20,000 bases of DNA, taken from IMG/VR virus record IMGVR_UViG_3300029953_000019, one strand, 5' to 3'. The translations under genes and the position numbers were made by a program. The DNA is from an uncultured virus (IMG/VR IMGVR_UViG_3300029953_000019). Taxonomy: Duplodnaviria > Heunggongvirae > Uroviricota > Caudoviricetes. The notes below the pieces were generated by a model, which saw only the letters and a list, made by a program, of their open reading frames with translations, did not search any database and was not told where the DNA came from. Below are positions 1-19,882 of this stretch, piece after piece; within the stretch, counting starts at the first letter, position 1, and every line of letters starts with the position of its first letter.

Positions 1-2120
1 AATGTCTTCAATACAGTACCTGGATCTAGTTTACGTAATGAATCTATGCTATTACTATCTATATTAGGAGTATGCTTAAGTTTATGTCCATGTTCCTTAA
101 TAAACTTATCCTTACTAGTAACTGGATTACCTTTAGTTACAGCATCCACATACTTTTCTAATTCTGCTAATTTCGTTAGTAATTCCCTTTTATCCGAAGC
201 TTTCTTACTAATCATTAATTCATCAGGTATATAAATATCACTGTATAGATTAAGGAAGTGAGAGGGAGGAAGTGGTTTATAAGTTAAATCTGACGCTAGT
301 TTGGATAAGCTCATACCAATCCTGTCAGCAGGTCTACGTACATAACTAATCTCAAACCATCTAGGGTCCGGAGTATTAATCATTCGGCACATTTCACCCT
401 CTTTATTAATTTCTCCTAAATGATTCTTAACGCAATCACATCTATCATTCTCTGTTTTAGCTCTATGACCACACCAAGAGCATAGGTCAGAGGCCATTTT
501 TGCAGCCATACTCCAATTCGTATTACCTGTTCGTTCTTGCTCATCTAGAATATCTGCACATTTATCTCTATCCAATCCTACTACTAATTCTATTCTACGC
601 ATCTTGTCATTATAAGCTGAAGCTTTTATAGTTCCATACTTAGGATCATTTGGTTTATTTTGATGATGCCTATGCACAGCTCTTTTACTATCAGAGAAAT
701 AATGATGATTTTTGATACAATCCTTCTCTAAAAAGCAATCGCCGTTGCGATTGCTATTATGTACTTGGATGTCCACTACATATGTATTATCTTCTTCAAC
801 TTCTAGATTATACTTTATTGTATCTTCTATTTCAGATAGTTCAACCAGTCCAACTTGTAATACTAAATGATTACTACTAATCCAAGATCTACCTGCAAGA
901 TATTTTGGTTGTTTACTTGATGGAGCTAGTCGAAGAGTATATTGTAGTATTTTATTCGAATGACAACTCCCAACCCCTACAGTATAAATAACATGGTCAG
1001 TTTTTCCAAAGCATCCATTAGAGTGTTTATTCATTCCTTTATAAACATTCGAAGTTATACCACAAGAAGCCAATAACCGATGTAAATCATAAGCTAGATT
1101 TCTAGAAGCTGTGGAGGCTGACATTGAACCTATATATCTGGCTGCTCCATTTGAATCAGGTCCTATAACATGTCCATCACCATCAAAATAAGCAGCTAAG
1201 AACTTAAGTTTCCACTCAATAGATTGCTGGAATATTATAGGTGATAAGAATTTTATAGTGGAATGACAACCAAATAGTTTTAGGCATTGTTGGGCTTTTT
1301 CATAATTTTGGAACGAAAATCTTCTGCCATATTCACTAGTAAATGATTTTTGAATACTAGTTTCGGCCCCATTCAGTTTCTTTATAATAGATTGGATCTT
1401 ATCAATACAAGGCTGATCCCCAACCGCCATAGTAAACAGGATTTTTGTATACTCACCACAATGACTTCTATCTTCTCTATATTCTTTCGCCAAACATCCT
1501 TCAGCTAAGTAATAACCAAACAAATAAGCATCATCTTCAGAAAATACTTCTTTTTTATCTTCATTATCTATATTAATAGGAGTTAATACATAATCTCCAG
1601 GTTTAATCTCACTAGCTGGAATATAGGGGGCTTTGCTTATAATATCATCCAATACATCTTTGGGATTCACACCATCATCTAATAATGAAGGACAGCGATG
1701 TTTAGTTCTAAAATCTACAGCTTTAATTACTTGTATAGGATGATTATCAGTGCATTCTATTCTATCACACAGACTAACAATATCTAATGATACTTTAACT
1801 CCACTAAAATCATTTTCGTAGGTTTTTAGCACTTTTCTATATCTGCCTTTATGTGTAAGTACTAAATCTCCAACTTTTATATCTTCTATAGGTTTTATAC
1901 CATTGATAGTTTGTACTGGTGCTCCTTTAAAGAAACATCCTGTACCTTCATATGATCCTACAGCAATTATATGCAAATCCTCTTGATTTGGAGTCTTTTC
2001 GTACTTCAATAATGATTTAGCAGAAGCCCTCTTCTTTAACTCTTTGCCTGAGTCTTTTAAAAGCACCACACTTTCACAATCAAAATCAAAGTCATTATTA
2101 CCAGTAAATTTAAGAATCAT
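1..2120 (-). CDS. Putative prohead (capsid maturation) protease with LAGLIDADG intein; 3' end outside window
   Basis: Not in ORF track (no stop in window). Manual translation from ATG 2120: MILKFTGNNDFDFDCE...HIIAVGSYEGTG|intein|SNRNGDCF...VHRHHQN...WSMAAKMASDLCSWCG...CDC...WFEISYVRRPADRIG. Order of His, Ser and the E-x-S-x-V-x-x-P-A motif resembles HK97/S78-type (herpes-like fold) prohead proteases. Confidence 0.7.
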   Translation of the reverse strand, partial: MILKFTGNNDFDFDCESVVLLKDSGKELKKRASAKSLLKYEKTPNQEDLHIIAVGSYEGTGCFFKGAPVQTINGIKPIEDIKVGDLVLTHKGRYRKVLKTYENDFSGVKVSLDIVSLCDRIECTDNHPIQVIKAVDFRTKHRCPSLLDDGVNPKDVLDDIISKAPYIPASEIKPGDYVLTPINIDNEDKKEVFSEDDAYLFGYYLAEGCLAKEYREDRSHCGEYTKILFTMAVGDQPCIDKIQSIIKKLNGAETSIQKSFTSEYGRRFSFQNYEKAQQCLKLFGCHSTIKFLSPIIFQQSIEWKLKFLAAYFDGDGHVIGPDSNGAARYIGSMSASTASRNLAYDLHRLLASCGITSNVYKGMNKHSNGCFGKTDHVIYTVGVGSCHSNKILQYTLRLAPSSKQPKYLAGRSWISSNHLVLQVGLVELSEIEDTIKYNLEVEEDNTYVVDIQVHNSNRNGDCFLEKDCIKNHHYFSDSKRAVHRHHQNKPNDPKYGTIKASAYNDKMRRIELVVGLDRDKCADILDEQERTGNTNWSMAAKMASDLCSWCGHRAKTENDRCDCVKNHLGEINKEGEMCRMINTPDPRWFEISYVRRPADRIGMSLSKLASDLTYKPLPPSHFLNLYSDIYIPDELMISKKASDKRELLTKLAELEKYVDAVTKGNPVTSKDKFIKEHGHKLKHTPNIDSNSIDSLRKLDPGTVLKT
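756..1937 (-). mobile_element. Intein (394 aa) with LAGLIDADG homing endonuclease, in the putative prohead protease
   Basis: Block A CFFKGAPVQTINGIKPIEDIKVGDLVLTH, block B CTDNHP, LAGLIDADG motifs LFGYYLAEG and FLAAYFDGDG, blocks F/G YNLEVEEDNTYVVDIQVHN followed by Ser(+1). Confidence 0.95.
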
Positions 2121-5692: not shown

Positions 5693-5980
5693 TTAAATAC
5701 TAAATGGTTTATTATTTAGATTTGGAACTACTCCCGGTACTTGAGATATTGGATTTTGTTGTCTGAACTGGGAGAGTAATTGGTAGAAAGGGAGTTGTTG
5801 TGCTCCTGATTGATTTTGTGGTTGTGAAGGTTGAGCTGGTCTAGTAGCTTGAGGTCCTGGTTGATTCATTGCAGGGTTAGGTTGTGACATATTACTCATT
5901 GCACCTAAAGCCGGAATTTGACCACCTTCTCCTAACGCTGCTTTTATAAAACCATTAATATATGCATCTTCTATTGTCAT
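5693..5980 (-). CDS. Small Gln/Pro-rich protein with N-terminal AYINGFIKAA leader
   Basis: Start reassigned from 6007 to ATG 5980 (TAA-T-ATG after upstream gene), giving MTIEDAYINGFIKAALG..., matching leaders of the 13312 and 19205 genes. Confidence 0.75.
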   Translation of the reverse strand: MTIEDAYINGFIKAALGEGGQIPALGAMSNMSQPNPAMNQPGPQATRPAQPSQPQNQSGAQQLPFYQLLSQFRQQNPISQVPGVVPNLNNKPFSI

Positions 5981-5981
5981 A

Positions 5982-8225
5982 TTATATATCATTTTTAGAT
6001 TGGTCATTAGAATTGATATCCATATTTGGCATCTGTTTTTTTAGGAAGATTACCAGATCTCCTAAATTATTAAATACATTTTTAACTAATTCAATTAGTT
6101 CTGGAAGTTGATCTTTGCCGAACAATTCATCAAATTCATCAGTATTCCAATAAGTTAAAAACAACATTTTACCAAGTTTATCTAGAGCCGATACAAAGTT
6201 AGGCACGTATTCCTGTATTTTATCTCCAGAATTAGTATATTTAGCCAATGCACCAATAGTCTGGGTATCGAATATTTCTTTTTGTCCTTGTTGAGCTAAT
6301 TGAACTGCATGATTGATTGTACCGTCTAATTGTGCTTCATCAGGCTTAACCCCCAAACCTTGCTGTGTAGGATCTTTGGTATACCCATCACTACAATCAT
6401 GCTGGTCTACCCAAGGAATGCCATAATAAGTAGGTTGCCCAGCTTCATTACTTTCCGGAGTTTCATCTTGTAGAGTTAAAGTATGGTCACCTAACACAGA
6501 TATTTTAACCATTCCTTCTCTTTTCTTATTAGGAATTAGGTCAGCCAAAACTGCCTCTGCATCCTTTTCTCTCAATCCAATATCAGTAACCATTGCAATT
6601 TTAGCTTCAAGTGGATTTGCATAAGTTACTTTTGCGCCAGCTACATTAAGGAAGAAGTCACTACCATTTGTGTGTAAAGTTAACGGGAAAGTATTGTTCT
6701 CTCTAAGGAAACTAGTTAGATAACATAGACCACCAGGTTTGCCAGACTTGATTTCAGACTGCTGTTTCTGACCCTCCATTCTCTGTTTATCTTGTTGTGT
6801 CTTGGAAGCAGAATAATCTATGTCAGGACGATAATAAGAACTTAAATGTATTTTAAGCAATTTGAATCCTTTAGGAACATAGACAGCCTTATTACGATGT
6901 TCTAGTTTATCCCCTGGTTTTTTAGTAAGTACCAATATTGTTTCGCCATTGTCTTTCTTCCTAGGTTCACCACAGTTATAAGCTTTTTTAGCTTCATTAT
7001 ACCAGGTAGGTTCAATTTTAAGCCTTCTAATACCAGAACCATCTTTATAGTTCTCAATGATTCTAAAAGGTTCAGTAGCTTTAAGATTCTCATTCAATAA
7101 TACATAGTCATCATAGCTAGGCAAGGCTTCAGCTAATTCCTCCAAATTCTTCATAGCCTCACTTATATCTTTAACTACTATTTGGTCCTTAATAAATATA
7201 TCCTTTACATTGCAATCATAGGCCTGTCCCGGTCTAGCTGCTTGTAAATCTATAACCAAGGCTTTATCATGACCATAACCAGGTATTAATGATTCAACAC
7301 TAGTTAATACTAACCCATATCTAATAGTACCTAACTCAGTTATATATGGATAAAAACCAGTTTGTACAGGGTTGCTAAACTGCTCAGTAAACTTAAAGAT
7401 ACCAACTTCAGATATCTCTTCCTTCATTCTATTATCTACAATAGAAATTCCTTTAGTAACCAGTTCTTTCTTAGTATGTTCAGACAAATCTTTAAAGTTA
7501 GTTTCGGTATCAAAGTCTATTACCTTTAATTTCTTAGGTTTAGCTTCTTTTACAATAGCTGGAACAGTCAAAGCTTCAGCAATTGCATTATCAGAATAGA
7601 ATGTCCTGACAGCATCAGTAAATTCAGCATTCTTATTCATAACGTCCCAAAATGCTTCTTTAACTGAATTATCCGAGTTTTTTATATAATCTAATAAAGA
7701 AGGGATAGGGAGAAAATCTTTTTTATCTAACAAGCTCTCAGCAACCTTATCAAATACTTCTGAATTCTTTTCTTCCAAATCTTTAGCTTCAGCATAACTA
7801 ATACGTCCAGTACGAGGAGGCCAGATCACATTACGCATACTAGGAGCAACAATATCTTTTTGCACATCCTCTTTACGTTGATTGCTTACACTTCCCATCC
7901 CAGTTACATCATCTTTTAAGAATAGTTCTGCAAAATCTTCAGTAAGTGGGTACATTTGTTGATTGTTCTTACTATATAGTATGTCCAAGTCTTTAATTTT
8001 TCCATCAACAAAGAAAGCAGGGACAAACATGATTTGTCCATTATTACTCTTAAATCCAAAAACACCCACAGCTTTGGTATCGTTATCACTCTTTTTAATT
8101 AGCTGGAAGCCTACTAAGAATGGTACTAGGTTACTTAGTTTGCCTTGTAACTTATCATATGCAAGAGTAAAGAACGCTTTCTCAAAATCATCCTCAGAAC
8201 TCGCTAATTTAGTTGAACTATTCAT
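5982..8225 (-). CDS. Large hypothetical protein, probably virion structural/head associated
   Basis: 747 aa; begins MNSSTKLASS (K-x-A-S); lies in cluster with the putative prohead protease. No family recognised. Confidence 0.75.
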   Translation of the reverse strand: MNSSTKLASSEDDFEKAFFTLAYDKLQGKLSNLVPFLVGFQLIKKSDNDTKAVGVFGFKSNNGQIMFVPAFFVDGKIKDLDILYSKNNQQMYPLTEDFAELFLKDDVTGMGSVSNQRKEDVQKDIVAPSMRNVIWPPRTGRISYAEAKDLEEKNSEVFDKVAESLLDKKDFLPIPSLLDYIKNSDNSVKEAFWDVMNKNAEFTDAVRTFYSDNAIAEALTVPAIVKEAKPKKLKVIDFDTETNFKDLSEHTKKELVTKGISIVDNRMKEEISEVGIFKFTEQFSNPVQTGFYPYITELGTIRYGLVLTSVESLIPGYGHDKALVIDLQAARPGQAYDCNVKDIFIKDQIVVKDISEAMKNLEELAEALPSYDDYVLLNENLKATEPFRIIENYKDGSGIRRLKIEPTWYNEAKKAYNCGEPRKKDNGETILVLTKKPGDKLEHRNKAVYVPKGFKLLKIHLSSYYRPDIDYSASKTQQDKQRMEGQKQQSEIKSGKPGGLCYLTSFLRENNTFPLTLHTNGSDFFLNVAGAKVTYANPLEAKIAMVTDIGLREKDAEAVLADLIPNKKREGMVKISVLGDHTLTLQDETPESNEAGQPTYYGIPWVDQHDCSDGYTKDPTQQGLGVKPDEAQLDGTINHAVQLAQQGQKEIFDTQTIGALAKYTNSGDKIQEYVPNFVSALDKLGKMLFLTYWNTDEFDELFGKDQLPELIELVKNVFNNLGDLVIFLKKQMPNMDINSNDQSKNDI

Positions 8226-9594: not shown

Positions 9595-11934
9595 TTACTC
9601 AAATGATAACTGCTCTTCCAGTTCTTCTGCAAATTTATGGGTCCCAAATCCTTTGGCATATGCAAGCCCTGGTATTGGAGATGGTCCCTCCAAACTACTA
9701 GAAGCTCCAGTATTGACAGCCTTTATTAATCTACGTTCCAGATTAGTACTATATAAGGTATGCATCCAGTCATGTTCATGTGCTGGGACATCTAATAATC
9801 TTTGCATTTCTGGTTCAAATTCAGGTTTTGTCTCATTTACCGTAACATAATCGATATTATGTTTCTTCAACTCATTAATTACAGTACTGGTGATTCTAGT
9901 TCCTATTGTATAGTGTAATTCAGGTATTTCCAAGTATAAACCTTGAGCCATATCAGTTCTGACCTTCTTACTATTAGTTCTAGGAGAATAGGCTTTCTCC
10001 AGTGTATGATAATTTACTATACTGTCTGGCAAGTTATTCCCTAAGCCTTTAGGATTGGTTATTTTAACATGAGTAATTAAACCTTTACTTATAATATCAA
10101 AATTACGTTTATTTATTCCACCTAATTGACTAGTTTCAAATGTATCTTTAATAGCTTTGGAGAAATACCTTCTACCTTCTCCAATACCTTTATGCTTTGT
10201 TATTTTAGCTGGATTAGGTATACCATCACTTAACACATCACCTTCTTCAACTAGCTGGCCTGATTTAACCAATACTTTCAAATCTGGGTGTACATAATAT
10301 TCTTCAAGTTTTCCATTATCATGCTTAATAACTATATAATGACCTCCTTGTGGTGCTACTCTTACTTCTTCTATCTTACCATCAGAGTCAGCTATTGGGG
10401 CTTCATGGACAAATGAATCCGGGATATTAAATAATTGATTGATGTATTTAAAGCCACCAAATTGATTAGAACCAGTTGCACTACCTCCCTTGTGCTTACT
10501 ATTATGTACTATTAAGCCATTCGCTAATACAAATAAAGCATCTTTACTATCTACTTCAATATCCCAACATTGTATTAATCCTAGATACTCTGGTTTATTG
10601 TATAGTACTACCCAATAATCATTTGTAGTAACTACATCTATAGTTTCATCAATATCTTTTAGAGGCATTTCTGTTAATACATTACTACATTCCAGGGTTT
10701 CACAAAGTATCTTATGATTCTCTGTAGCATATAGTTCAATTACTTTATCTTTATTATCTATAAATATATATTTATTAACAGGTTGTAATCCTTGATTGAA
10801 TAACCTTAGAACTTTGACTGGAGAGGTTTGACCAGCGTTATCAGAGCCAAGCACCATATCTCCGACCTTTATATCTTGAATAGCTTTAATAGAATAATCT
10901 GCCATTCTTACTAGTGTTCCTTCAGCTAAACAGTTTAACGCCCCTTGTGCTACTGGTTCTGCTGCTGAAGTACCGGCAACAACTCCAATAAAAGAATTAA
11001 GTTCAGACAAGCCTTTACCTCTGATACCCACACATAATTGACAAAGAGCACTAGAAGTTCCATCATGACTAGCTTCACAAGTTATAGGATTTCTAACTAC
11101 AATCTCTTCTATGCCTTTGCTTTTTAGAATACCCAGCATACTAGAGGTAACTTCATTATTATAGTGATATTTGTCTATAGGATGAGCTAAGAACGAACCG
11201 ATGTAATCATTATCATTTGTTTTTACAGGTATTCCATTATGAGTACCACAATCATGTTCTTCTATCACCATTGTCATGTTTGCTCTAGCTAATTGCTTGC
11301 CTAAAAACCCACCTTCTGCCACTGATAATTTTGTGGCCGCGCTGGCTTGTCTCGCACCAAAAGTATGTGCCAAATATTGGGGCAAGGTTAATCCTTCAGC
11401 AAAAGATCTATCAATAATAAAATCAGTTAGAATACCGCCTTTATTATCGTTAACGGCTACTGGGGAGAAAATAGTTTGACGATATTGTTCGGGACTCCCT
11501 CTCGCTCCGGCTTTAACTACCTTGGCTAGAGTCTTATTATCTTTAAGGCCTTCTTCTATTATTTCCTTATTTGCAGTGTCAGAAAACTTGTTGAGCAAAT
11601 TTGTTAGTTCATCATCTTCTTTCTTTTTAGGTAACTTTTTATCCTTTATGCTCTTAATCTCTTTATTGAGTTCTTTAAATCTCTCATCTTTAAAGGAGGG
11701 TGGAAGCAAGTCACCTAGTCTGACAGTACTACCCAACCTAGTAGCTGATTCAAACCCAAGTCTAGTTAAATCTGATACTACTTTCTTATAACTATCTTCA
11801 TTATGCTCTGCTAAATTAGAGAAGAAAGCACCTATATTCTTCTTATCCAAATCTTTGCTTTCTATAAATGAATGAGAGTTAGCAGGAGAGTAATGCTTAA
11901 GCAGGATTTTGCCTACTGTTGTTACCTCAGACAT
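9595..11934 (-). CDS. DNA-directed RNA polymerase beta-prime C-terminal part (funnel, bridge helix, trigger loop) with mini-intein
   Basis: RpoC-like motifs: AGARGSPEQYRQ, SFAEGLTLPQY...GARQ, EGGFLGKQL (bridge helix), EEHDCGT, VRNPITC...LCQLCVG (Zn site), IGVVAGTSAAEPVAQGALN|SKHKGG (trigger loop; E. coli SIGEPGTQLTMRTFH). Confidence 0.92.
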   Translation of the reverse strand: MSEVTTVGKILLKHYSPANSHSFIESKDLDKKNIGAFFSNLAEHNEDSYKKVVSDLTRLGFESATRLGSTVRLGDLLPPSFKDERFKELNKEIKSIKDKKLPKKKEDDELTNLLNKFSDTANKEIIEEGLKDNKTLAKVVKAGARGSPEQYRQTIFSPVAVNDNKGGILTDFIIDRSFAEGLTLPQYLAHTFGARQASAATKLSVAEGGFLGKQLARANMTMVIEEHDCGTHNGIPVKTNDNDYIGSFLAHPIDKYHYNNEVTSSMLGILKSKGIEEIVVRNPITCEASHDGTSSALCQLCVGIRGKGLSELNSFIGVVAGTSAAEPVAQGALNCLAEGTLVRMADYSIKAIQDIKVGDMVLGSDNAGQTSPVKVLRLFNQGLQPVNKYIFIDNKDKVIELYATENHKILCETLECSNVLTEMPLKDIDETIDVVTTNDYWVVLYNKPEYLGLIQCWDIEVDSKDALFVLANGLIVHNSKHKGGSATGSNQFGGFKYINQLFNIPDSFVHEAPIADSDGKIEEVRVAPQGGHYIVIKHDNGKLEEYYVHPDLKVLVKSGQLVEEGDVLSDGIPNPAKITKHKGIGEGRRYFSKAIKDTFETSQLGGINKRNFDIISKGLITHVKITNPKGLGNNLPDSIVNYHTLEKAYSPRTNSKKVRTDMAQGLYLEIPELHYTIGTRITSTVINELKKHNIDYVTVNETKPEFEPEMQRLLDVPAHEHDWMHTLYSTNLERRLIKAVNTGASSSLEGPSPIPGLAYAKGFGTHKFAEELEEQLSFE
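10501..10932 (-). mobile_element. Mini-intein (144 aa, no endonuclease) in the RNAP trigger loop
   Basis: CLAEGTLVRMAD...ATENHKIL...CWDIEVDSKDALFVLANGLIVHN then Ser(+1). Confidence 0.95.
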
Positions 11935-12610: not shown

Positions 12611-13312
12611 TTAGATTTCTGGATTTCCGCCTGGTTCATCTTCACCATTATCATATTCACTATCTTCTGATTTTCTATGCTTGCTATATAGATAAGCCCC
12701 TAAACCACCTAAACCTGCAGCGCCCAAACCTAATTCATAAGGAACTTTGTTGTTACTAATATGATTGGATAATACTTCAAATAAAGATTGGGGAGAAATA
12801 TCATTCTTATGTAAAGCTTGTTCTGCTCCAGTTATAGCTCCATGTATACTAGGTTTAATAGTAGTATTAGCATTTACATTATTAAATACATTACCTAATC
12901 CTTGACCAGCATAATGAGCACCTATGCCTCCACCTACTCCAAGTCCGGCAGCAGTACCTAGTCCCATGTCACCAACTGATTTACTTTTGAATAGTTTACT
13001 CAATACGGATTTGGCATCAATATTAGCTGGTTCTGGTTTACTATTTAATTTAAGTTGATTTCCTCCAAAGCCATCTAATTTAATCTTATTACTTATAGAA
13101 CCTAGATTAAGTTTACTAGATGGAAAGTCAGAACTAGAAGGAGCTTTAGGTATAGCTAAATTAGAAACAGCTGCCTCTGGTATAGAAGCACCAGTAGCCT
13201 CAGTAGCACCAGTAACTTCAGGTTTAAGTACATTAGCCAATTCTTCAAATGACTTAATAGGATTTGCAGAAGCTTTAATAAATCCGTTAATAAATGCGTT
13301 ATTTAGATTCAT
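12611..13312 (-). CDS. Glycine-zipper protein with N-terminal AFINGFIKAS leader
   Basis: 233 aa; GLGTAAGLGVGGGIGA and LGLGAAGLGGLGAYLYSKHRK hydrophobic helices; ATGA overlap with upstream gene. Confidence 0.8.
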   Translation of the reverse strand: MNLNNAFINGFIKASANPIKSFEELANVLKPEVTGATEATGASIPEAAVSNLAIPKAPSSSDFPSSKLNLGSISNKIKLDGFGGNQLKLNSKPEPANIDAKSVLSKLFKSKSVGDMGLGTAAGLGVGGGIGAHYAGQGLGNVFNNVNANTTIKPSIHGAITGAEQALHKNDISPQSLFEVLSNHISNNKVPYELGLGAAGLGGLGAYLYSKHRKSEDSEYDNGEDEPGGNPEI

Positions 13313-14263: not shown

Positions 14264-15985
14264 TCATTTCTCTATTTCTATGTTGTCTCCTGGCTCTAAA
14301 TCACCTCTGTTATATGCAGCAACTACTTCTTGTTCAGTTTTATATTTTTTAGGAGTGTTATGTTTGTTTTCTGTACTTAGTCCATAAAGGCCCAAAGCTG
14401 CTTCATTACTAGGGATTAATACAGGTTGAAAAGATTTAACAGATAATAAATTTTTGCTAGGCATCATTTTAGCTATAACTTCTTTACGTGCTTCTTCAGT
14501 GCCTGGAATATGGACATTAAGTTGGTCTCCGTCGGAATTTTTTGTATATCCTCCTATAGTTAAGAAACTTCCGTAGTTTGGTATTTCCAAATCGTAAGCA
14601 GTATTAGATTGTAACTTAGTTACTCTTTTAACTTTCTTCCATTTTAAACTACCATTATACACCTTACCTAAATATGATATCCATTGTTCATTATTCTTTA
14701 ACTCAACTAGAAGTATTTCAATTATTTCTTTTAAAGTGCTTTTACGAAATCTATCTGTTTTAAATTCCTGGCTTAATCTATATTTTAAATTATAAAGTTC
14801 CTTATTCTTTTGTAATTTATATTTATTATTAATAGCTGTAATTATATTTTTTTTAACAGTTTCTGAAGGAAGTGGTACTAAGTCATTAAAGTTATCACCT
14901 ATACCTGTTATATCTTTTAAGCTATTCTCTAATTTTTCCTTCTTCAACTCATGACTTATTCTAAATTTTGTTCTTTCAACTAACTTTTTAAATGTCCCAG
15001 TATGAAATCTGAAGGAGAAATTATCTTTACTACTCAGCCTAGATGCCCCTTTATATACTCCATAATTTAAATTTAACCGTTTACTCATATATCTTAAACC
15101 GTTAATTAAATGAATTGATGATGTGCAGATACTTATATTTATAACTGTTTTATTAGAAGAACTGACACTTACTGTTCCATCAGTTGAGATTAACCCATCT
15201 AATATACCTAGTAGATGTTCTTCAGGACCGTTTAAACTAAAAGTAGGTATTTTCTTATTAAAAGCTCCACTCCCTATCTGCTCTTTTAACCACTTATTAA
15301 ACCAGGCACAAGAAGCTCTAGTTTTACCTCTAGAAGTAAATTGCCCCATCATATTCTCACTAACTCTATCTATTTCTTTAACTCCATTTTCATAAGGAAG
15401 ATATTCACTATTACATAAATCAGCAAATACTTTTCTATTCATTAATTTTTCTTTGGTAGAACCGGCTAAGAAAAGTTGATTAGCATTATCTACCCAACCA
15501 TCACCTAAAACCATTCCTATAAAAAGTCCGGTTTTATAATTAAGTTGCAAGTTAAATGAATTTTTAACAAATCCTTTTCCTCGTATTCCTTTCATTCCTC
15601 TAGTACCCATCATACCTTCAGCTAATACACTTGATTGAATATTGGGTGCTATAGTTGTAACATCACTAGGACAATACCTACCTACTGCCTCTTCGGTATC
15701 AACTTCTTCAATACCACTATCAGTATAAGCTAATAAACTATGATCTTTGGCTGCAAATATAAAATCCCCATCTATAAATTGTACCAAATATAAAGGTACA
15801 TTAGGATGAATCGAGAATGTCTTTGGATTTACCCAATCTACTTCACCAGTTATAAGGTTTAATGATTTTACTTCTACATTACTAGGTACATCATAAAGGA
15901 TATTACCATTTATAGTAGTAGTGGCTGAATTTTCTATTCTAGGGAAATCTGAAATAGGTACTAGTGTATATTTATAATTAATCAT
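14264..15985 (-). CDS. C-fragment of split intein (483 aa, LAGLIDADG) fused to 90-aa RNAP beta-prime segment beginning SDGD
   Basis: YTLVPISDF (continuation of intein N-terminal strands), AAKDHSLL (block B variant), FIGMVLGDGW and LDGLISTDGT (LAGLIDADG), AYDLEIPNYGSFLTIGGYTKN|SDGDQLNVHIP...EARKEVIAKMMPSKNLLS...PSNEAALGLY (E. coli FDGDQMAVHVP...PSQDVVLGLY). Confidence 0.92.
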   Translation of the reverse strand: MINYKYTLVPISDFPRIENSATTTINGNILYDVPSNVEVKSLNLITGEVDWVNPKTFSIHPNVPLYLVQFIDGDFIFAAKDHSLLAYTDSGIEEVDTEEAVGRYCPSDVTTIAPNIQSSVLAEGMMGTRGMKGIRGKGFVKNSFNLQLNYKTGLFIGMVLGDGWVDNANQLFLAGSTKEKLMNRKVFADLCNSEYLPYENGVKEIDRVSENMMGQFTSRGKTRASCAWFNKWLKEQIGSGAFNKKIPTFSLNGPEEHLLGILDGLISTDGTVSVSSSNKTVINISICTSSIHLINGLRYMSKRLNLNYGVYKGASRLSSKDNFSFRFHTGTFKKLVERTKFRISHELKKEKLENSLKDITGIGDNFNDLVPLPSETVKKNIITAINNKYKLQKNKELYNLKYRLSQEFKTDRFRKSTLKEIIEILLVELKNNEQWISYLGKVYNGSLKWKKVKRVTKLQSNTAYDLEIPNYGSFLTIGGYTKNSDGDQLNVHIPGTEEARKEVIAKMMPSKNLLSVKSFQPVLIPSNEAALGLYGLSTENKHNTPKKYKTEQEVVAAYNRGDLEPGDNIEIEK

Positions 15986-16058
15986 ATAGACACAATACGG
16001 TGACTAGTTGAACTTGTCAATTAATTTTCTCTCTATAAATAATATAATCTACAATACT
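14537..16058 (-). mobile_element. Split intein in RNAP catalytic motif: IntN 16058-16020 (13 aa), IntC 15985-14537
   Basis: Removing SIVDYIIYREKIN and MINYK...YTKN joins NPLVFKGYGAD to SDGDQLNVHIP, restoring the DxDxD motif exactly. Ser1, terminal Asn, Ser(+1). Confidence 0.85.
15992..16020 (-). promoter_or_regulatory. Sigma70-type promoter within the intein split, predicted leaderless transcript
   Basis: TTGACA (16020-16015, contains the TGA stop of the upstream ORF)-N17-TATTGT (15997-15992)-N6-ATG 15985. Confidence 0.75.
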
Positions 16059-18770
16059 ATCCGCACCATACCCCTTAAATACTAATGGATTCATTTTAAT
16101 AGTTTTATCTTTAGAATTTGGATTAGCAATTAAATTAAACCCTAATAGATTATATTTATGCCAGGCTGGATCTCGCGTTATAATACCAGGTCTTACTGCC
16201 ATCTCTTCCTTTAATGCCATAACTGCTAATGGACTATGTTTTTTAACATAATCAACCGCACTAATAGCTGGTACACCCTTCATAACCAACCTTCTAATAA
16301 CAAAAGGTTTATATATCTGCCACAGCATATCTTGAGGTACACTAGCCTGGTCTACATCCAATCTAGTATCTGGAGTTAACACAGCTCTTCCCACCAAATC
16401 CAGACTCTTATTAACCACCTTACTCTGAAACATTGTACTTTTAGCCGTTCCACCCTTTAATCCAAACATAGTAGCTAATATACCTTTAACATTCTTATCC
16501 TGGTGTTTCTTATTAATTGGATCACCCAAACCAAAGGCAGCTTTTACTCCATCATATTCATTTTGTTTTAATTTCCTAACTACTTCGTCCGGCACATTCT
16601 CAGTATTTTTAAGTGCATTGTTATTTAGTATGAGGTCTTTATATAGATTATTAACATCACTAGTTAATACTACATCACCCATCTTACTAGCAGGTCTGTA
16701 TTGGGCTGGTAGAATAGGTACTTTATGCAACATCAAATCTTTAGGATGTAACTTATGTTCTTTTAGTGTAGTGAGAAATTCTAACAATTTAACGGCATCA
16801 TCTCTTCTAGTCTTCTTCTCACTACCTATATACTTCTTCATTTCTTCTATCTTCTTATCCAGATCTATATTATTAAGGGCTTTTTCCATTTCCCCATCCA
16901 CTACCATATCATTAAACTTAAACTTGGTAACTCCTAACAACTTTCTGAGATAATCCTCACTAATAGGATTAGGTATGGGATGATTAAGATTTATGTGATT
17001 AAACTTGTCACCTAATATGCCTATTATATTAGGATCAAATAGTCCGCCAGGTTCATGTATTAGTTCTTCTTGATGTGGCTTGAATAATGAAGGTTTCTTA
17101 ATTTCACCATTACTCAAAGCAGTAGTATCCTTATCTGTTAAAGGTAGGATATTAAAGGTATTACCAACTCTATCTACATTAATACCGGCAGCTTTTAAAC
17201 TATCTATGAACTTGTTAAAGATGAATGGAACTTTAGGGCTGGGTGGGGTTTGGCCCAATTTAATAGCACGCCAGAATTCATCATTCTGAGTACCTTTAAC
17301 AGTACCTATATCCTCCAATACATGTCTGACATCATGACTTAGCAAAGCTGTAGTACCTAAATTTCCTATTCTCTTTGATGAACCACCTTCCACTGCTGAC
17401 TTACTTGGTTGCCGGTCGAAACTGTATCCGGACCCCTGACTTCTAGTACTTAGTTTATCTTCACTAATATGAGTTAACCTACTATAGAATAATGGACCTA
17501 CAACTGCTTCAATATTTCTACCAGTAATTGGATCATATAGTTGTTCAGTATCATTTATATTATTCTTCTTTAATACATTAATTACATTCTTAATAGATGA
17601 ATCCTTTCTAAACTGATCCATTTTAATAGTCTTACCAGTCTTCTCAGCTAATTTACCAAGGCCTAGAGTTATGGCTAAGGCTGGTGCAACTCTTGACGTG
17701 ATGGACATGGAGTTAAGCATGATATCAACTGGCTTCCCATTAGGTAGTAGTGGAGCTTGTGAGTCTGATACAATCTTCGTTACACCCTTAGCTCCAAAGT
17801 AATTAGAAATCTTATCACCAGGTAATAGACTTCTTACCGTCTTGATATGTACTGTAATAAGTGGGCCATGTTTGGTTACATCCACTACTTCTCCATCATG
17901 TTCGTAGTCCCAGGCTTCTGAATTATCTTTGAATGCATGTTTTAATACTTTACTCAGCTTACCTAATGCCAAATCTGTACTCTTTAATGCTCTGGGTGAG
18001 TAAGCCAGGATTACCGGGTCTCCAGCTTTCAATCTAGACCCTACTATAACCACTCCATCTGAATCTATATTTTTAATTTGATTATTCGTATATTTATTAG
18101 GAAATAGTGCTACAAATTTATCCTTGCCTGCCTCTACTCCAAATTTCTCTTCAATACTAAAATTGATCATTTGTTCTGCTGCCAACTTTTTAGCACCACT
18201 TTCAGTCACTGCAAAAGCATCCTCAAAGTTGTCTGAGCGGTACGGGATTATAGCAGTAGTAAGGTTAGTTCCCATCGCCATATTACCTTCTTTATCATTA
18301 TAATTACTGTAAGCTATTACTTCATTAGTTTTAACTTTATCACCAACCTTCACTTTAGGGGTATGAGTAATAAAGCTTTTCCTGCCTAAATGAAAGTTAT
18401 TATATAGTTGATAGGTAGACTTGGTTTTATCTGTATTATCTACTTTAATATGATTTTCAGTAACTTCAGTAACAGTACCAGGTTTAGTTGCAGTTACAGA
18501 TAAATAATGTTTACCATATAGTTCTTGAGTACTTTCTTTGTTAGTGTCATCTGAACTTTCTACTAACGGACGTTCAGGATTTACTAAAGGTATAGCTTGG
18601 AGAGAAGCCTTGGCTCCTAGTAACACACGCCCGCCGGAAACTGAATTTAGCCCAGTAATCATGTTAGTAGGTAAAGCAAATAAATCCCTACTCGAAGGCA
18701 TGGATATATGATCTTCATTTAGTTTGTCCACCTTCTCAAAATTTCCCTTATTAAGTACAGTATAACTCAT
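16017..18770 (-). CDS. RNA polymerase beta (C-terminal half)/beta-prime (N-terminal part) fusion ending in 13-aa IntN
   Basis: RpoB-like: RVLLGAKASLQAIPL, SDNFEDAFAV, GDKISNYFGAKGV, PVDIMLNSMSITSR, RLTHISEDKLSTRS, VPFIFNKFIDSLKAAGINV. RpoC-like: LSNGEIKKP, GGLFDPNIIG, VPILPAQYRP, SDVNNLY, KSLDLVGRAVL, RDPAWHK, NPLVFKGYGAD. Start ATG 18770 preferred to TTG 18812. Confidence 0.93.
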   Translation of the reverse strand: MSYTVLNKGNFEKVDKLNEDHISMPSSRDLFALPTNMITGLNSVSGGRVLLGAKASLQAIPLVNPERPLVESSDDTNKESTQELYGKHYLSVTATKPGTVTEVTENHIKVDNTDKTKSTYQLYNNFHLGRKSFITHTPKVKVGDKVKTNEVIAYSNYNDKEGNMAMGTNLTTAIIPYRSDNFEDAFAVTESGAKKLAAEQMINFSIEEKFGVEAGKDKFVALFPNKYTNNQIKNIDSDGVVIVGSRLKAGDPVILAYSPRALKSTDLALGKLSKVLKHAFKDNSEAWDYEHDGEVVDVTKHGPLITVHIKTVRSLLPGDKISNYFGAKGVTKIVSDSQAPLLPNGKPVDIMLNSMSITSRVAPALAITLGLGKLAEKTGKTIKMDQFRKDSSIKNVINVLKKNNINDTEQLYDPITGRNIEAVVGPLFYSRLTHISEDKLSTRSQGSGYSFDRQPSKSAVEGGSSKRIGNLGTTALLSHDVRHVLEDIGTVKGTQNDEFWRAIKLGQTPPSPKVPFIFNKFIDSLKAAGINVDRVGNTFNILPLTDKDTTALSNGEIKKPSLFKPHQEELIHEPGGLFDPNIIGILGDKFNHINLNHPIPNPISEDYLRKLLGVTKFKFNDMVVDGEMEKALNNIDLDKKIEEMKKYIGSEKKTRRDDAVKLLEFLTTLKEHKLHPKDLMLHKVPILPAQYRPASKMGDVVLTSDVNNLYKDLILNNNALKNTENVPDEVVRKLKQNEYDGVKAAFGLGDPINKKHQDKNVKGILATMFGLKGGTAKSTMFQSKVVNKSLDLVGRAVLTPDTRLDVDQASVPQDMLWQIYKPFVIRRLVMKGVPAISAVDYVKKHSPLAVMALKEEMAVRPGIITRDPAWHKYNLLGFNLIANPNSKDKTIKMNPLVFKGYGADSIVDYIIYREKIN

Positions 18771-18776
18771 ATTTTG

Positions 18777-18806
18777 ATTATATACTCTTATTATTGATTT
18801 CCACAA
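18777..18806 (-). promoter_or_regulatory. Candidate promoter for RNAP fusion gene, predicted leaderless
   Basis: TTGTGG-N18-TATAAT-N6-ATG 18770; same 6-nt spacing from -10 box to ATG as the intein-internal promoter. Confidence 0.6.
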
Positions 18807-18861
18807 CCTCAAACTTTAGTCTTTAATTAACCTGGAATATACATTAAACTAGGTTAGATTT

Positions 18862-19212
18862 ATGAAGAGTTGGATTATTATTGTATTTAGCTTGATTAGT
18901 ATTAGTATTGAAGCACAACAATTAAATAAAGTCTATCTAAATCACTTATTAGACGCTATTTATCTAGCTGAGGGTGGGGCTAATACTAAATATCCTTATG
19001 GAGTGATTGGAGATTTTAAAAAGAGTCCAAGAATTATAGCTGCCAATACTATAAAACATAATTACAATAACTGGTTAAATAGTAGTTCTAAAACAGATTT
19101 CTTAAGATATCTACAACAACACTATTGTCCTATAAATGCTAAAAATGACCCTAATCATTTAAATGATAACTGGTATAAGAATGTATCTTTAATAATGAAA
19201 CAGTATGAATAA
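18862..19212 (+). CDS. Putative secreted lysozyme-like peptidoglycan hydrolase
   Basis: Signal-peptide-like N-terminus MKSWIIIVFSLISISIEA; helix-terminal Glu in AIYLAEGG followed by YG; C-terminal YCP...NWYKNV pattern seen in lysozyme-fold proteins. Confidence 0.6.
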   Translation: MKSWIIIVFSLISISIEAQQLNKVYLNHLLDAIYLAEGGANTKYPYGVIGDFKKSPRIIAANTIKHNYNNWLNSSSKTDFLRYLQQHYCPINAKNDPNHLNDNWYKNVSLIMKQYE

Positions 19213-19882
19213 GTTAGATGCATTTATTAATGGTTTTATCAAGGCTGCTGGCCCACTCCCTCCACCTCCTCCACCTCCTACACCTCCTACACCTCCAAAA
19301 ATTCCGATGATTTCATTACCACACAATGCTTATACTGTTGGTGGTCTCCCTCCAAATATGCATAATTTTGTTAATAAAGGTGGTAATACCCTTAATATAA
19401 ATGCTCACGGTGGTCCTGATAGTGCTATTAATGGAGAATATGCATTTCAAAGTGATTCTAATAATTCTAAAAACTTGCTTTATAACAATGAACCACTAAC
19501 TTATACTCCTCAAACATTGGCTAAACTTATTGGTCCAGCTACTAACAATATCAATAATATTTATACTACTGCTTGTAATGGTGGGGATTGCTCCAATACT
19601 AATGTGAGTCCAAACGAAGTGCTTAAAGGGTTTGCTACTCCAGCTATGTACCGTAAATTATTCCCTAATCTTACTAACGTTGTTCAAATCCCTCCCAGGC
19701 ATTATGGTCCATTAATTCCAAGTCAATTTAAGACTAATGAATACCCAGACGTAGTGAATATAATAAATAGAATTATTAAAGATAGGAATCCTAATGATCC
19801 AATAACTACAAGCTTGCCTCATCAATATAATCTACAAGGTGGTACTAATTGGGTGGATAAAGGGACTTACTATAATTACTGA
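19205..19882 (+). CDS. AFINGFIKAA-leader protein with poly-Pro linker and putative clan CD (caspase-fold) cysteine protease domain
   Basis: MNKLDAFINGFIKAA, PLPPPPPPPTPPTPP, then strand-HG (TLNINAHGG) and strand-AC (IYTTACNGG) about 55 residues apart. Confidence 0.6.
   Translation: MNKLDAFINGFIKAAGPLPPPPPPPTPPTPPKIPMISLPHNAYTVGGLPPNMHNFVNKGGNTLNINAHGGPDSAINGEYAFQSDSNNSKNLLYNNEPLTYTPQTLAKLIGPATNNINNIYTTACNGGDCSNTNVSPNEVLKGFATPAMYRKLFPNLTNVVQIPPRHYGPLIPSQFKTNEYPDVVNIINRIIKDRNPNDPITTSLPHQYNLQGGTNWVDKGTYYNY

Follow-up and report, generated by a model that had tools for sequence, protein, structure and literature searches.

How might a phage rebuild the metal-binding loop of its RNA polymerase when that loop is encoded across two neighbouring genes? 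The question is raised by a 20,000-nucleotide (nt) stretch of DNA (the window) from the uncultured virus IMGVR_UViG_3300029953_000019, which is part of a 127-kb virus record with 35.5% GC; the phage was detected in peat metagenomes. The source is a peat-soil jumbo phage, and two neighbouring open reading frames (ORFs) divide the loop, the upstream one ending shortly after the first catalytic Asp and the downstream one supplying the other two. A previous reading of the window (the original prediction) had proposed that a natural, atypically split intein with Ser1/Ser+1 junctions and an in-frame LAGLIDADG domain lies at the break, made up of an N-terminal fragment of 13 amino acids (aa; IntN) and a C-terminal fragment (IntC). 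Our computational analysis bears this out at the level of predicted proteins: the split recurs in three lineages, a contiguous allele and intein-free alleles with the product motif exist, and a model of the two fragments passes its controls. We conclude, with a probability of roughly 80%, that the Mg-binding loop is restored by trans-splicing of the class 1 oxyester type.

The catalytic loop is split over two ORFs

The split of the catalytic loop over two ORFs is real. Every coordinate of the original prediction was reproduced, namely the ORF ends, the 31-nt gap, the frame change and the extein/intein junctions, as were the stop codons TGA (16019-16017), TAG (16006-16004, in the downstream frame) and TAA (16023-16021, in the third frame). 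Because of this TAG and this TAA, no single indel or read-through unites the ORFs. Confirmation by reads had also been called for, and the split proved genuine: three other assemblies (L001-L003) showed 0 differences over 4012-4549 nt. All sampled sequence words were present in 14 DNA runs, which are not independent, each being a possible source of this DNA, and strain-level protein variants retain the identical tail. An RNA-library contig (X16 record 11, 15951-16290) crosses the gap unspliced, at low depth and with DNA carry-over possible; the RNA contig ends at 16000-16001 are uninformative on the start site.

The identical assemblies, the DNA runs and the RNA-library contig rule out an assembly error. 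A frameshift combined with TAG suppression is also ruled out, since both a slippery site and a suppressor tRNA are absent: no X-XXY-YYZ site was found from 16058 to the downstream start codon, and the sole tRNA in the partial genome is tRNA-Cys. TAG is a rare stop in this phage genome and no sense codon (0 of 49 ORFs of at least 250 aa and 13 of 157 ORFs of at least 100 aa end with it). Each of two partial genome records contains one copy of this gene.

Split, contiguous and intein-free relatives

Homologues of the upstream protein were listed (120), and 70 homologues were parsed for the junction motif. Two of the 120 listed, P0005 and P0009, also end in a short intein tail of 14 aa each, with R-E-K-L-T-S. 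Their presumed IntC partners, P0124 and P0125, start M-N-N-Y-K-Y-T and M-N-T-Y-K-Y-T, respectively, and both end in Asn followed by S-D-G-D. The IntC of P0124 and P0125 are 53-54% identical to the focal IntC, the hosts 72-75% and the C-exteins 66-76%. Across the three split alleles the N-terminal HINT part is 59-65% and the LAGLIDADG domain 67-68% identical, and Met starts all three IntC at the same place. As judged from these predicted proteins, three phage lineages have kept the split. Scans for the DNA of the related split alleles returned only this phage and a chance match (L014) among viral sequences, only this phage among metagenomes and none among genomes; the intein was absent from cultured phages.

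Contiguous and intein-free alleles, which the original prediction had proposed to look for, both exist. In P0103 the intein is contiguous and occupies this site. The three split inteins form a clade (support 0.999), and P0103 branches as its sister (support 1.0); a contiguous allele closer than P0103 was not found. Seventeen of the 70 parsed homologues are intein-free and carry G-A-D-S-D-G-D, the exact motif expected from splicing.

Splicing residues, fold and modelled association

Ser1, Asn483 and Ser+1 are common to all three split alleles, and His82 and Asp465 stand at the block B His and block F:4 Asp of class 1 inteins as defined in PMC4031507. Together these five residues fit a class 1 intein. 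Class 3 was rejected, as F:4 is Asp465 and not Cys. His60 lies before block B, where the NX His of Ser1 inteins is expected (PMC10189870), and is a candidate for that residue; both His60 and Asp465 are invariant among 65 family members. Four non-junction cysteines remain in this Ser1/Ser+1 intein. A search of 1.84 billion representatives returned 462 relatives, 150 of which were listed, and 105 anchored contiguous proteins were parsed from those listed. The penultimate Lys, which the original prediction had pointed out, is unremarkable, because penultimate His is missing throughout the contiguous family (absent in 105/105 among the matches listed).

The AlphaFold2 model of IntC had a predicted local distance difference test (pLDDT) score of 91.5, with residues 1-10 unstructured, and its best Foldseek match, showing the HINT fold, was the TliVMA intein 7qss, a LAGLIDADG maxi-intein (E 2.7e-18). 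The endonuclease also matched PI-PfuI, PI-SceI and I-DmoI, and its putative catalytic acids, Asp162 and Asp269, are conserved. When IntC was modelled together with the 37 C-terminal residues of the upstream protein, as had been suggested, the complex score was 0.82 against 0.00 for the best of 3 controls; 51 of 78 solved complexes and 2 of 108 mismatches attained the mark applied to this score. At least 78% of the contacts were common to the runs, and the pLDDT of the partner was at least 51. In the model, residues 923-927, within IntN, are paired with IntC 6-10 and 37-39, and the interface extends to IntC 458-481. Because the halves of a split gene can pass through likeness to solved inteins, the model speaks for fit and not for activity.

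A promoter-like element in the gap

The gap resembles a sigma70-type promoter of the leaderless kind, the -35 box of which, TTGACA, contains the TGA of IntN and would provide its stop. Neither this element, which is new here, nor the ATTAAT repeat flanking the gap appears in the original prediction. Read in another frame, TTGACA could also underlie the L-T-S end of the two related IntN. The genome is mostly devoid of Shine-Dalgarno (SD) sequences, 109 of 164 ORFs having no such motif of at least 3 nt. An ATG lies 6-8 nt past the -10 box in 4 of the 23 strict promoter matches in the genome, and the same promoter geometry is found before two of three free-standing EndoVII genes, one of them under the strict threshold.

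Proposed mechanism and alternatives

In the mechanism that we propose, two precursors would be made: the N-terminal part of the polymerase with the 13-aa IntN, and a second protein, begun at its own Met, in which the remainder of the intein with the endonuclease is followed by a 90-aa polymerase tail. The gap would serve as a host-type leaderless promoter and as the IntN stop, and IntC and the endonuclease would be expressed apart from the polymerase gene. IntN would dock, as modelled, and supply the first strands that the HINT fold of IntC lacks. An N-O shift at Ser1, aided by His60, His82 and Asp465, would then be followed by attack of Ser+1 and cyclisation of Asn483, and the D-x-D-x-D loop would be restored. 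The original prediction had gone further and let splicing gate RNA polymerase activity, a regulation for which we found no support at all.

Several points weigh against trans-splicing as we propose it. Splicing and the transcription start are predictions from the sequence. The usual helpers Thr B:7 (Ala79), His F:13 (Phe474 region) and penultimate His (Lys482) are absent; these residues are common in class 1 inteins and not obligatory. His60 is preceded by Ile (Ile/Val in the family) and not by the Arg or Lys that are described as invariably preceding the NX His (PMC10189870). P0005/P0124 and P0009/P0125 are known as proteins, and their pairing is presumed from contigs of equal length. The promoter match is by itself within chance in this AT-rich region (16 sites found, 26 expected). 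Finally, the two genome records are 58% and 69% complete, leaving room for an intact second copy.

Partial records and the lack of all three helpers would also suit an intein that does not splice, with the polymerase dead or provided by another gene and the downstream ORF persisting as a selfish endonuclease. We regard this as unlikely: both exteins remain intact, with 66-76% conservation, three lineages retain IntN and the HINT part, the entire contiguous family likewise does without penultimate His (0/105 among the matches listed), and the phage is present in many runs, a second copy being not found in the two records. Somewhat less credible again is programmed ribosomal bypass, in which take-off at the AAU before UGA, a 43-nt hop and landing on a matched AAU would give a single precursor that splices in cis. 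ATTAAT does occur on both sides of the gap (K-I-N-stop, then M-I-N), the take-off codon has a stop directly after it, like that of T4 gene 60 (bioRxiv 10.1101/2024.12.09.627546), and the joined length is that of the short contiguous alleles (22-26 aa to the anchor). However, the related alleles, which end K-L-T-S and start M-N-N or M-N-T, have no matched residue, and the Met is retained in all three split alleles. Moreover, the fold of the gap is not significant and the take-off hairpin not stable (z -0.56), and a promoter-like element typical of the family sits in the gap.

The halves might instead associate unligated, or be only cleaved, and form the catalytic loop non-covalently, for which the ribonucleotide reductase of phage Aeh1 with its mobE-split NrdA offers a precedent (PMC3045599). 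Binding of the halves is indeed predicted by our model, but the two residues parted by the break are neighbours in the Mg-binding loop, the active centre would be expected to be filled by the 483-aa domain if this were retained, and Ser1, Asn and Ser+1 are all conserved, so we consider such an assembly very improbable. Excision of the gap at the RNA level, which the original prediction had named as a way in which it could fail, has nothing in its favour, is the explanation we credit least and is rejected: no joints were seen in 4/4 runs compared, the one RNA-library contig is unspliced across the gap (at low depth and with DNA carry-over possible), and Rfam returned no family apart from one chance snoRNA match (E 0.34). 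A segment of 31-43 nt is also far below the size of self-splicing introns. Trans-splicing of two separately made precursors is the most likely reading.

Internal expression cassettes in the wider intein family

The insertion point of most relatives among the matches listed follows D-F-D-G-D, an offset of three residues in the downstream direction, and Asp is the final intein residue in many. In the parsed contiguous proteins (n=105), a median of 57 aa (range 22-91) separates residue 1 from the conserved D-F-P strand, against 27 in the focal intein. A Met stands 14-27 aa before the anchor in 84 of the 100 long-linker contiguous proteins in this set, against 23% expected, and Glu stands at -3 of that Met in 26 of the 84; it must be set against this pattern that the Met window was picked after inspection of the data. 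The DNA bears this pattern out. From 127 viral loci, 75 distinct alleles were parsed (the rest being duplicates, other inteins or unparsed), and 63 remained below 60% identity. A promoter match of at least 10/12 lies in the linker of 15 of the 55 dereplicated long-linker contiguous alleles, and in 7 of 11 low-GC loci; among the controls, the upstream stretch gave 0, the downstream stretch and the opposite strand gave 1 each, and shuffles gave 1.6 (maximum 7). A start codon with an SD sequence of at least 5 nt was found in the linker of 29/55, against 1-5 in seven control windows. The promoter and start hidden in contiguous relatives at the split position suggest how such splits may originate.

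Three of the 63 dereplicated alleles, L080, L136 and L138, are split at the linker, with IntN of 25, 21 and 24 aa and promoter scores of 9, 11 and 10, respectively; all lie outside the focal clade. L138 is one base off a contiguous allele, near a T-run, and L080 is one TAA off; these two splits might be errors, because each was seen in a single contig. L136 was found in two identical contigs. About 16 more stand-alone IntC-like proteins with the same Met offset, known as protein only and possibly fragments, were left out of the split count.

Internal cassettes of this kind are widespread among the contiguous members, for which just one stop codon or frameshift downstream of block A would suffice to split the gene; the pattern is observed, and the causal step is proposed. 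In its full form, the proposal is that the family carries an in-frame promoter, ribosome-binding site and start after block A for independent expression of the endonuclease, that it was in this way pre-adapted to splitting and split at least twice independently by a single stop or frameshift, and that the focal allele is such a split, has the shortest natural IntN (13 aa) and homes between phages as a two-gene unit. We hold this tentatively, at somewhat short of an even chance. Against it, the nearest contiguous allele, P0103, has neither a long linker nor an internal Met, and for this reason the cassette route is seen in the family and inferred for the focal lineage. The earlier suggestion that the locus is a snapshot of how split inteins arise is supported at the level of the family, by its cassettes and splits.

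Other members of the family differ in further ways. L083 and L089 were dropped as splits, because their upstream polymerase frame contains 11 TAG codons, which marks them as TAG-recoded contiguous alleles; their intein has a promoter and SD cassette. P0161, P0182, P0159 and P0283 form a clade of stand-alone IntC-like proteins beside the contiguous P0158 and P0226 and may be another natural split. L139-L146 are stand-alone ORFs with an intein-like N-terminus and no polymerase gene before them. Among the matches listed, 72 of the 105 parsed alleles (P0137-P0284) end in Asp instead of Asn, and most Asn-ending alleles begin with a non-nucleophile (Gln, Leu, Phe, Glu, Asp and others) and have Thr+1 and the block-F Asp. 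An unusual splicing chemistry is possible in these alleles.

Possible mobility of the split intein

In a host tree of the 14 closest polymerases, from which the junction region was excluded, the focal polymerase groups with three intein-free alleles (97/95), and a single clade of the three split hosts is rejected by the approximately unbiased test (p-AU 0.0027). Because the three split hosts do not group as a single clade, homing of the split intein may be ongoing. The endonuclease is patchily distributed among hosts. The +1 position in 11 intein-free neighbours is Asn in 8, Ala in 2, Cys in 1 and Ser in none. With both aspartates of the endonuclease kept and 67-68% identity in that domain among the split alleles, homing of the split unit is plausible, and we propose that the element is probably still mobile; the tree is, however, explained equally well by repeated replacement with intein-free alleles.

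Features of the locus and its surroundings

Table 1. Coordinates of the split polymerase gene and its intein in the window
Feature	Position	Strand	Description
Upstream ORF	18812-16017	minus	RNA polymerase chain with beta C-terminus fused to beta-prime N-terminus; last residues G-Y-G-A-D + SIVDYIIYREKIN + TGA 16019-16017; Pfam Rpb2_6, Rpb1_1, Rpb1_2
N-extein	16059..18812	minus	Ends G-A-D; first catalytic Asp codon 16061-16059; database start Met at 18770
IntN	16020..16058	minus	13 aa, SIVDYIIYREKIN; Ser1, block A only; 14-aa tails of P0005 and P0009 similar
IntN stop codon TGA	16017..16019	minus	Part of -35 hexamer
Non-coding gap	15986..16016	minus	31 nt; no SD sequence, no significant fold; between ATTAAT repeats 16025-16020 and 15982-15977
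Sigma70-type promoter-like element	15992..16020	minus	TTGACA-17-TATTGT; -10 box ends 6 nt before ATG (leaderless geometry); score 10/12
Downstream ORF	15985-14264	minus	Other frame than upstream ORF; intein part ends Y-T-K-N, then S-D-G-D-Q + polymerase tail; Pfam LAGLIDADG_3 (E 8e-8), Intein_splicing (E 3e-6, under gathering score), Rpb1_2 480-507
IntC	14537..15985	minus	483 aa; Met1, His60 (NX candidate), His82 (block B), Asp465 (block F:4), Lys482-Asn483
LAGLIDADG homing endonuclease, two-motif	14936..15550	minus	Inside IntC; Asp162, Asp269; Pfam LAGLIDADG_3
C-extein	14264..14536	minus	90 aa; Ser+1, then D-G-D = second + third catalytic Asp; Pfam Rpb1_2 480-507, TIGR02386 480-572

The NCBIfam rpoC match on the upstream protein extends to residue 918, and record P0003 is 917 aa long. 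The polymerase is re-partitioned, the beta C-terminus and the beta-prime N-terminus being on a single chain (window 16017-18812, minus) of ~990 aa in intein-free relatives. The beta-prime C-terminal gene (9595-11934, minus) has a second intein, a contiguous Cys1 mini-intein with a Hint match at 329-420 and an H-N end followed by Ser. A contiguous Cys1 LAGLIDADG intein (Hint_2 62-106, LAGLIDADG_3 302-368) is found in the ORF at 3-2120 (minus), the host protein of which has no Pfam name.

ORFs at window 5693-6007, 12611-13312 and 19205-19882 and at genome 26222-27016 share an N-terminal F/Y-I-N-G-F-I-K-A-A motif. More than 10 paralogous short genes at genome 99216-126211 start M-K/T-I/L-T-K-R/I and contain Cys-rich repeats. 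Free-standing endonuclease genes stand amid structural genes: three EndoVII-type, one DUF559/Vsr-like and one LAGLIDADG-like (genome 57327, 57790, 60062, 53216 and 8706).

Comparison with known systems

Searches of Creative Commons-licensed PubMed Central (PMC) articles and of bioRxiv returned no report of an intein-internal promoter or of an internal cassette, nor of this intein or any endonuclease-bearing atypically split intein. The LAGLIDADG maxi-inteins TliVMA (7qss), PI-PfuI (1dq3) and PI-SceI have the HINT and two-motif LAGLIDADG folds in common with the focal intein and, unlike it, are contiguous and splice in cis. Fractured genes (Dassa et al. 2009, PMC2677866) resemble the locus in that phage split inteins have adjacent halves and an associated homing endonuclease. 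In those genes, the halves are separated by a free-standing gene of the GIY-YIG or Vsr-like type, usually at the insertion site of the endonuclease, whereas in the focal locus the endonuclease is in frame within IntC, the break is a 31-nt promoter-like gap and no free-standing gene lies in it. In PMC2677866, breaking is proposed to occur via an invading free-standing endonuclease, a new promoter being needed and viable intermediates being left unexplained. An internal cassette is a route to a split distinct from such invasion and is a candidate, testable answer to the question of how a gene can turn into a split-intein pair while avoiding a dead intermediate. This single family offers alleles of all three kinds, contiguous, cassette-bearing and split, for side-by-side comparison. 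If the proposal is true, a split intein has retained its in-frame endonuclease and perhaps still homes.

The GOS TerL and VidaL inteins (PMC13014065, PMC10189870) are, like the focal intein, split near the N-terminus. The closest known system is PolB16 OarG (Pasch et al. 2023, PMC10189870), whose mode of action the focal intein would share, and the focal intein has the sequence features expected of a natural atypically split class 1 intein. Both are metagenomic, are naturally split after block A and have Ser1/Ser+1 and the class 1 block F Asp, and His60 is the candidate counterpart of the NX-type His of PolB16. PolB16 OarG has a 15-aa IntN, a 168-aa mini-intein IntC, a PolB host and a penultimate His182, and its splicing was demonstrated, whereas the focal intein, the splicing of which is predicted, has a 13-aa IntN, a 483-aa IntC with LAGLIDADG, an RNA polymerase loop as its site, a penultimate Lys and a promoter-like gap. 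Natural atypically split IntN are given as 15-37 aa, with PolB16 as the only cysteine-less case (PMC13014065). The 13-aa Ser/Ser IntN falls below this 15-aa record; it is easily synthesised and would be relevant to protein semisynthesis if an endonuclease-free version splices.

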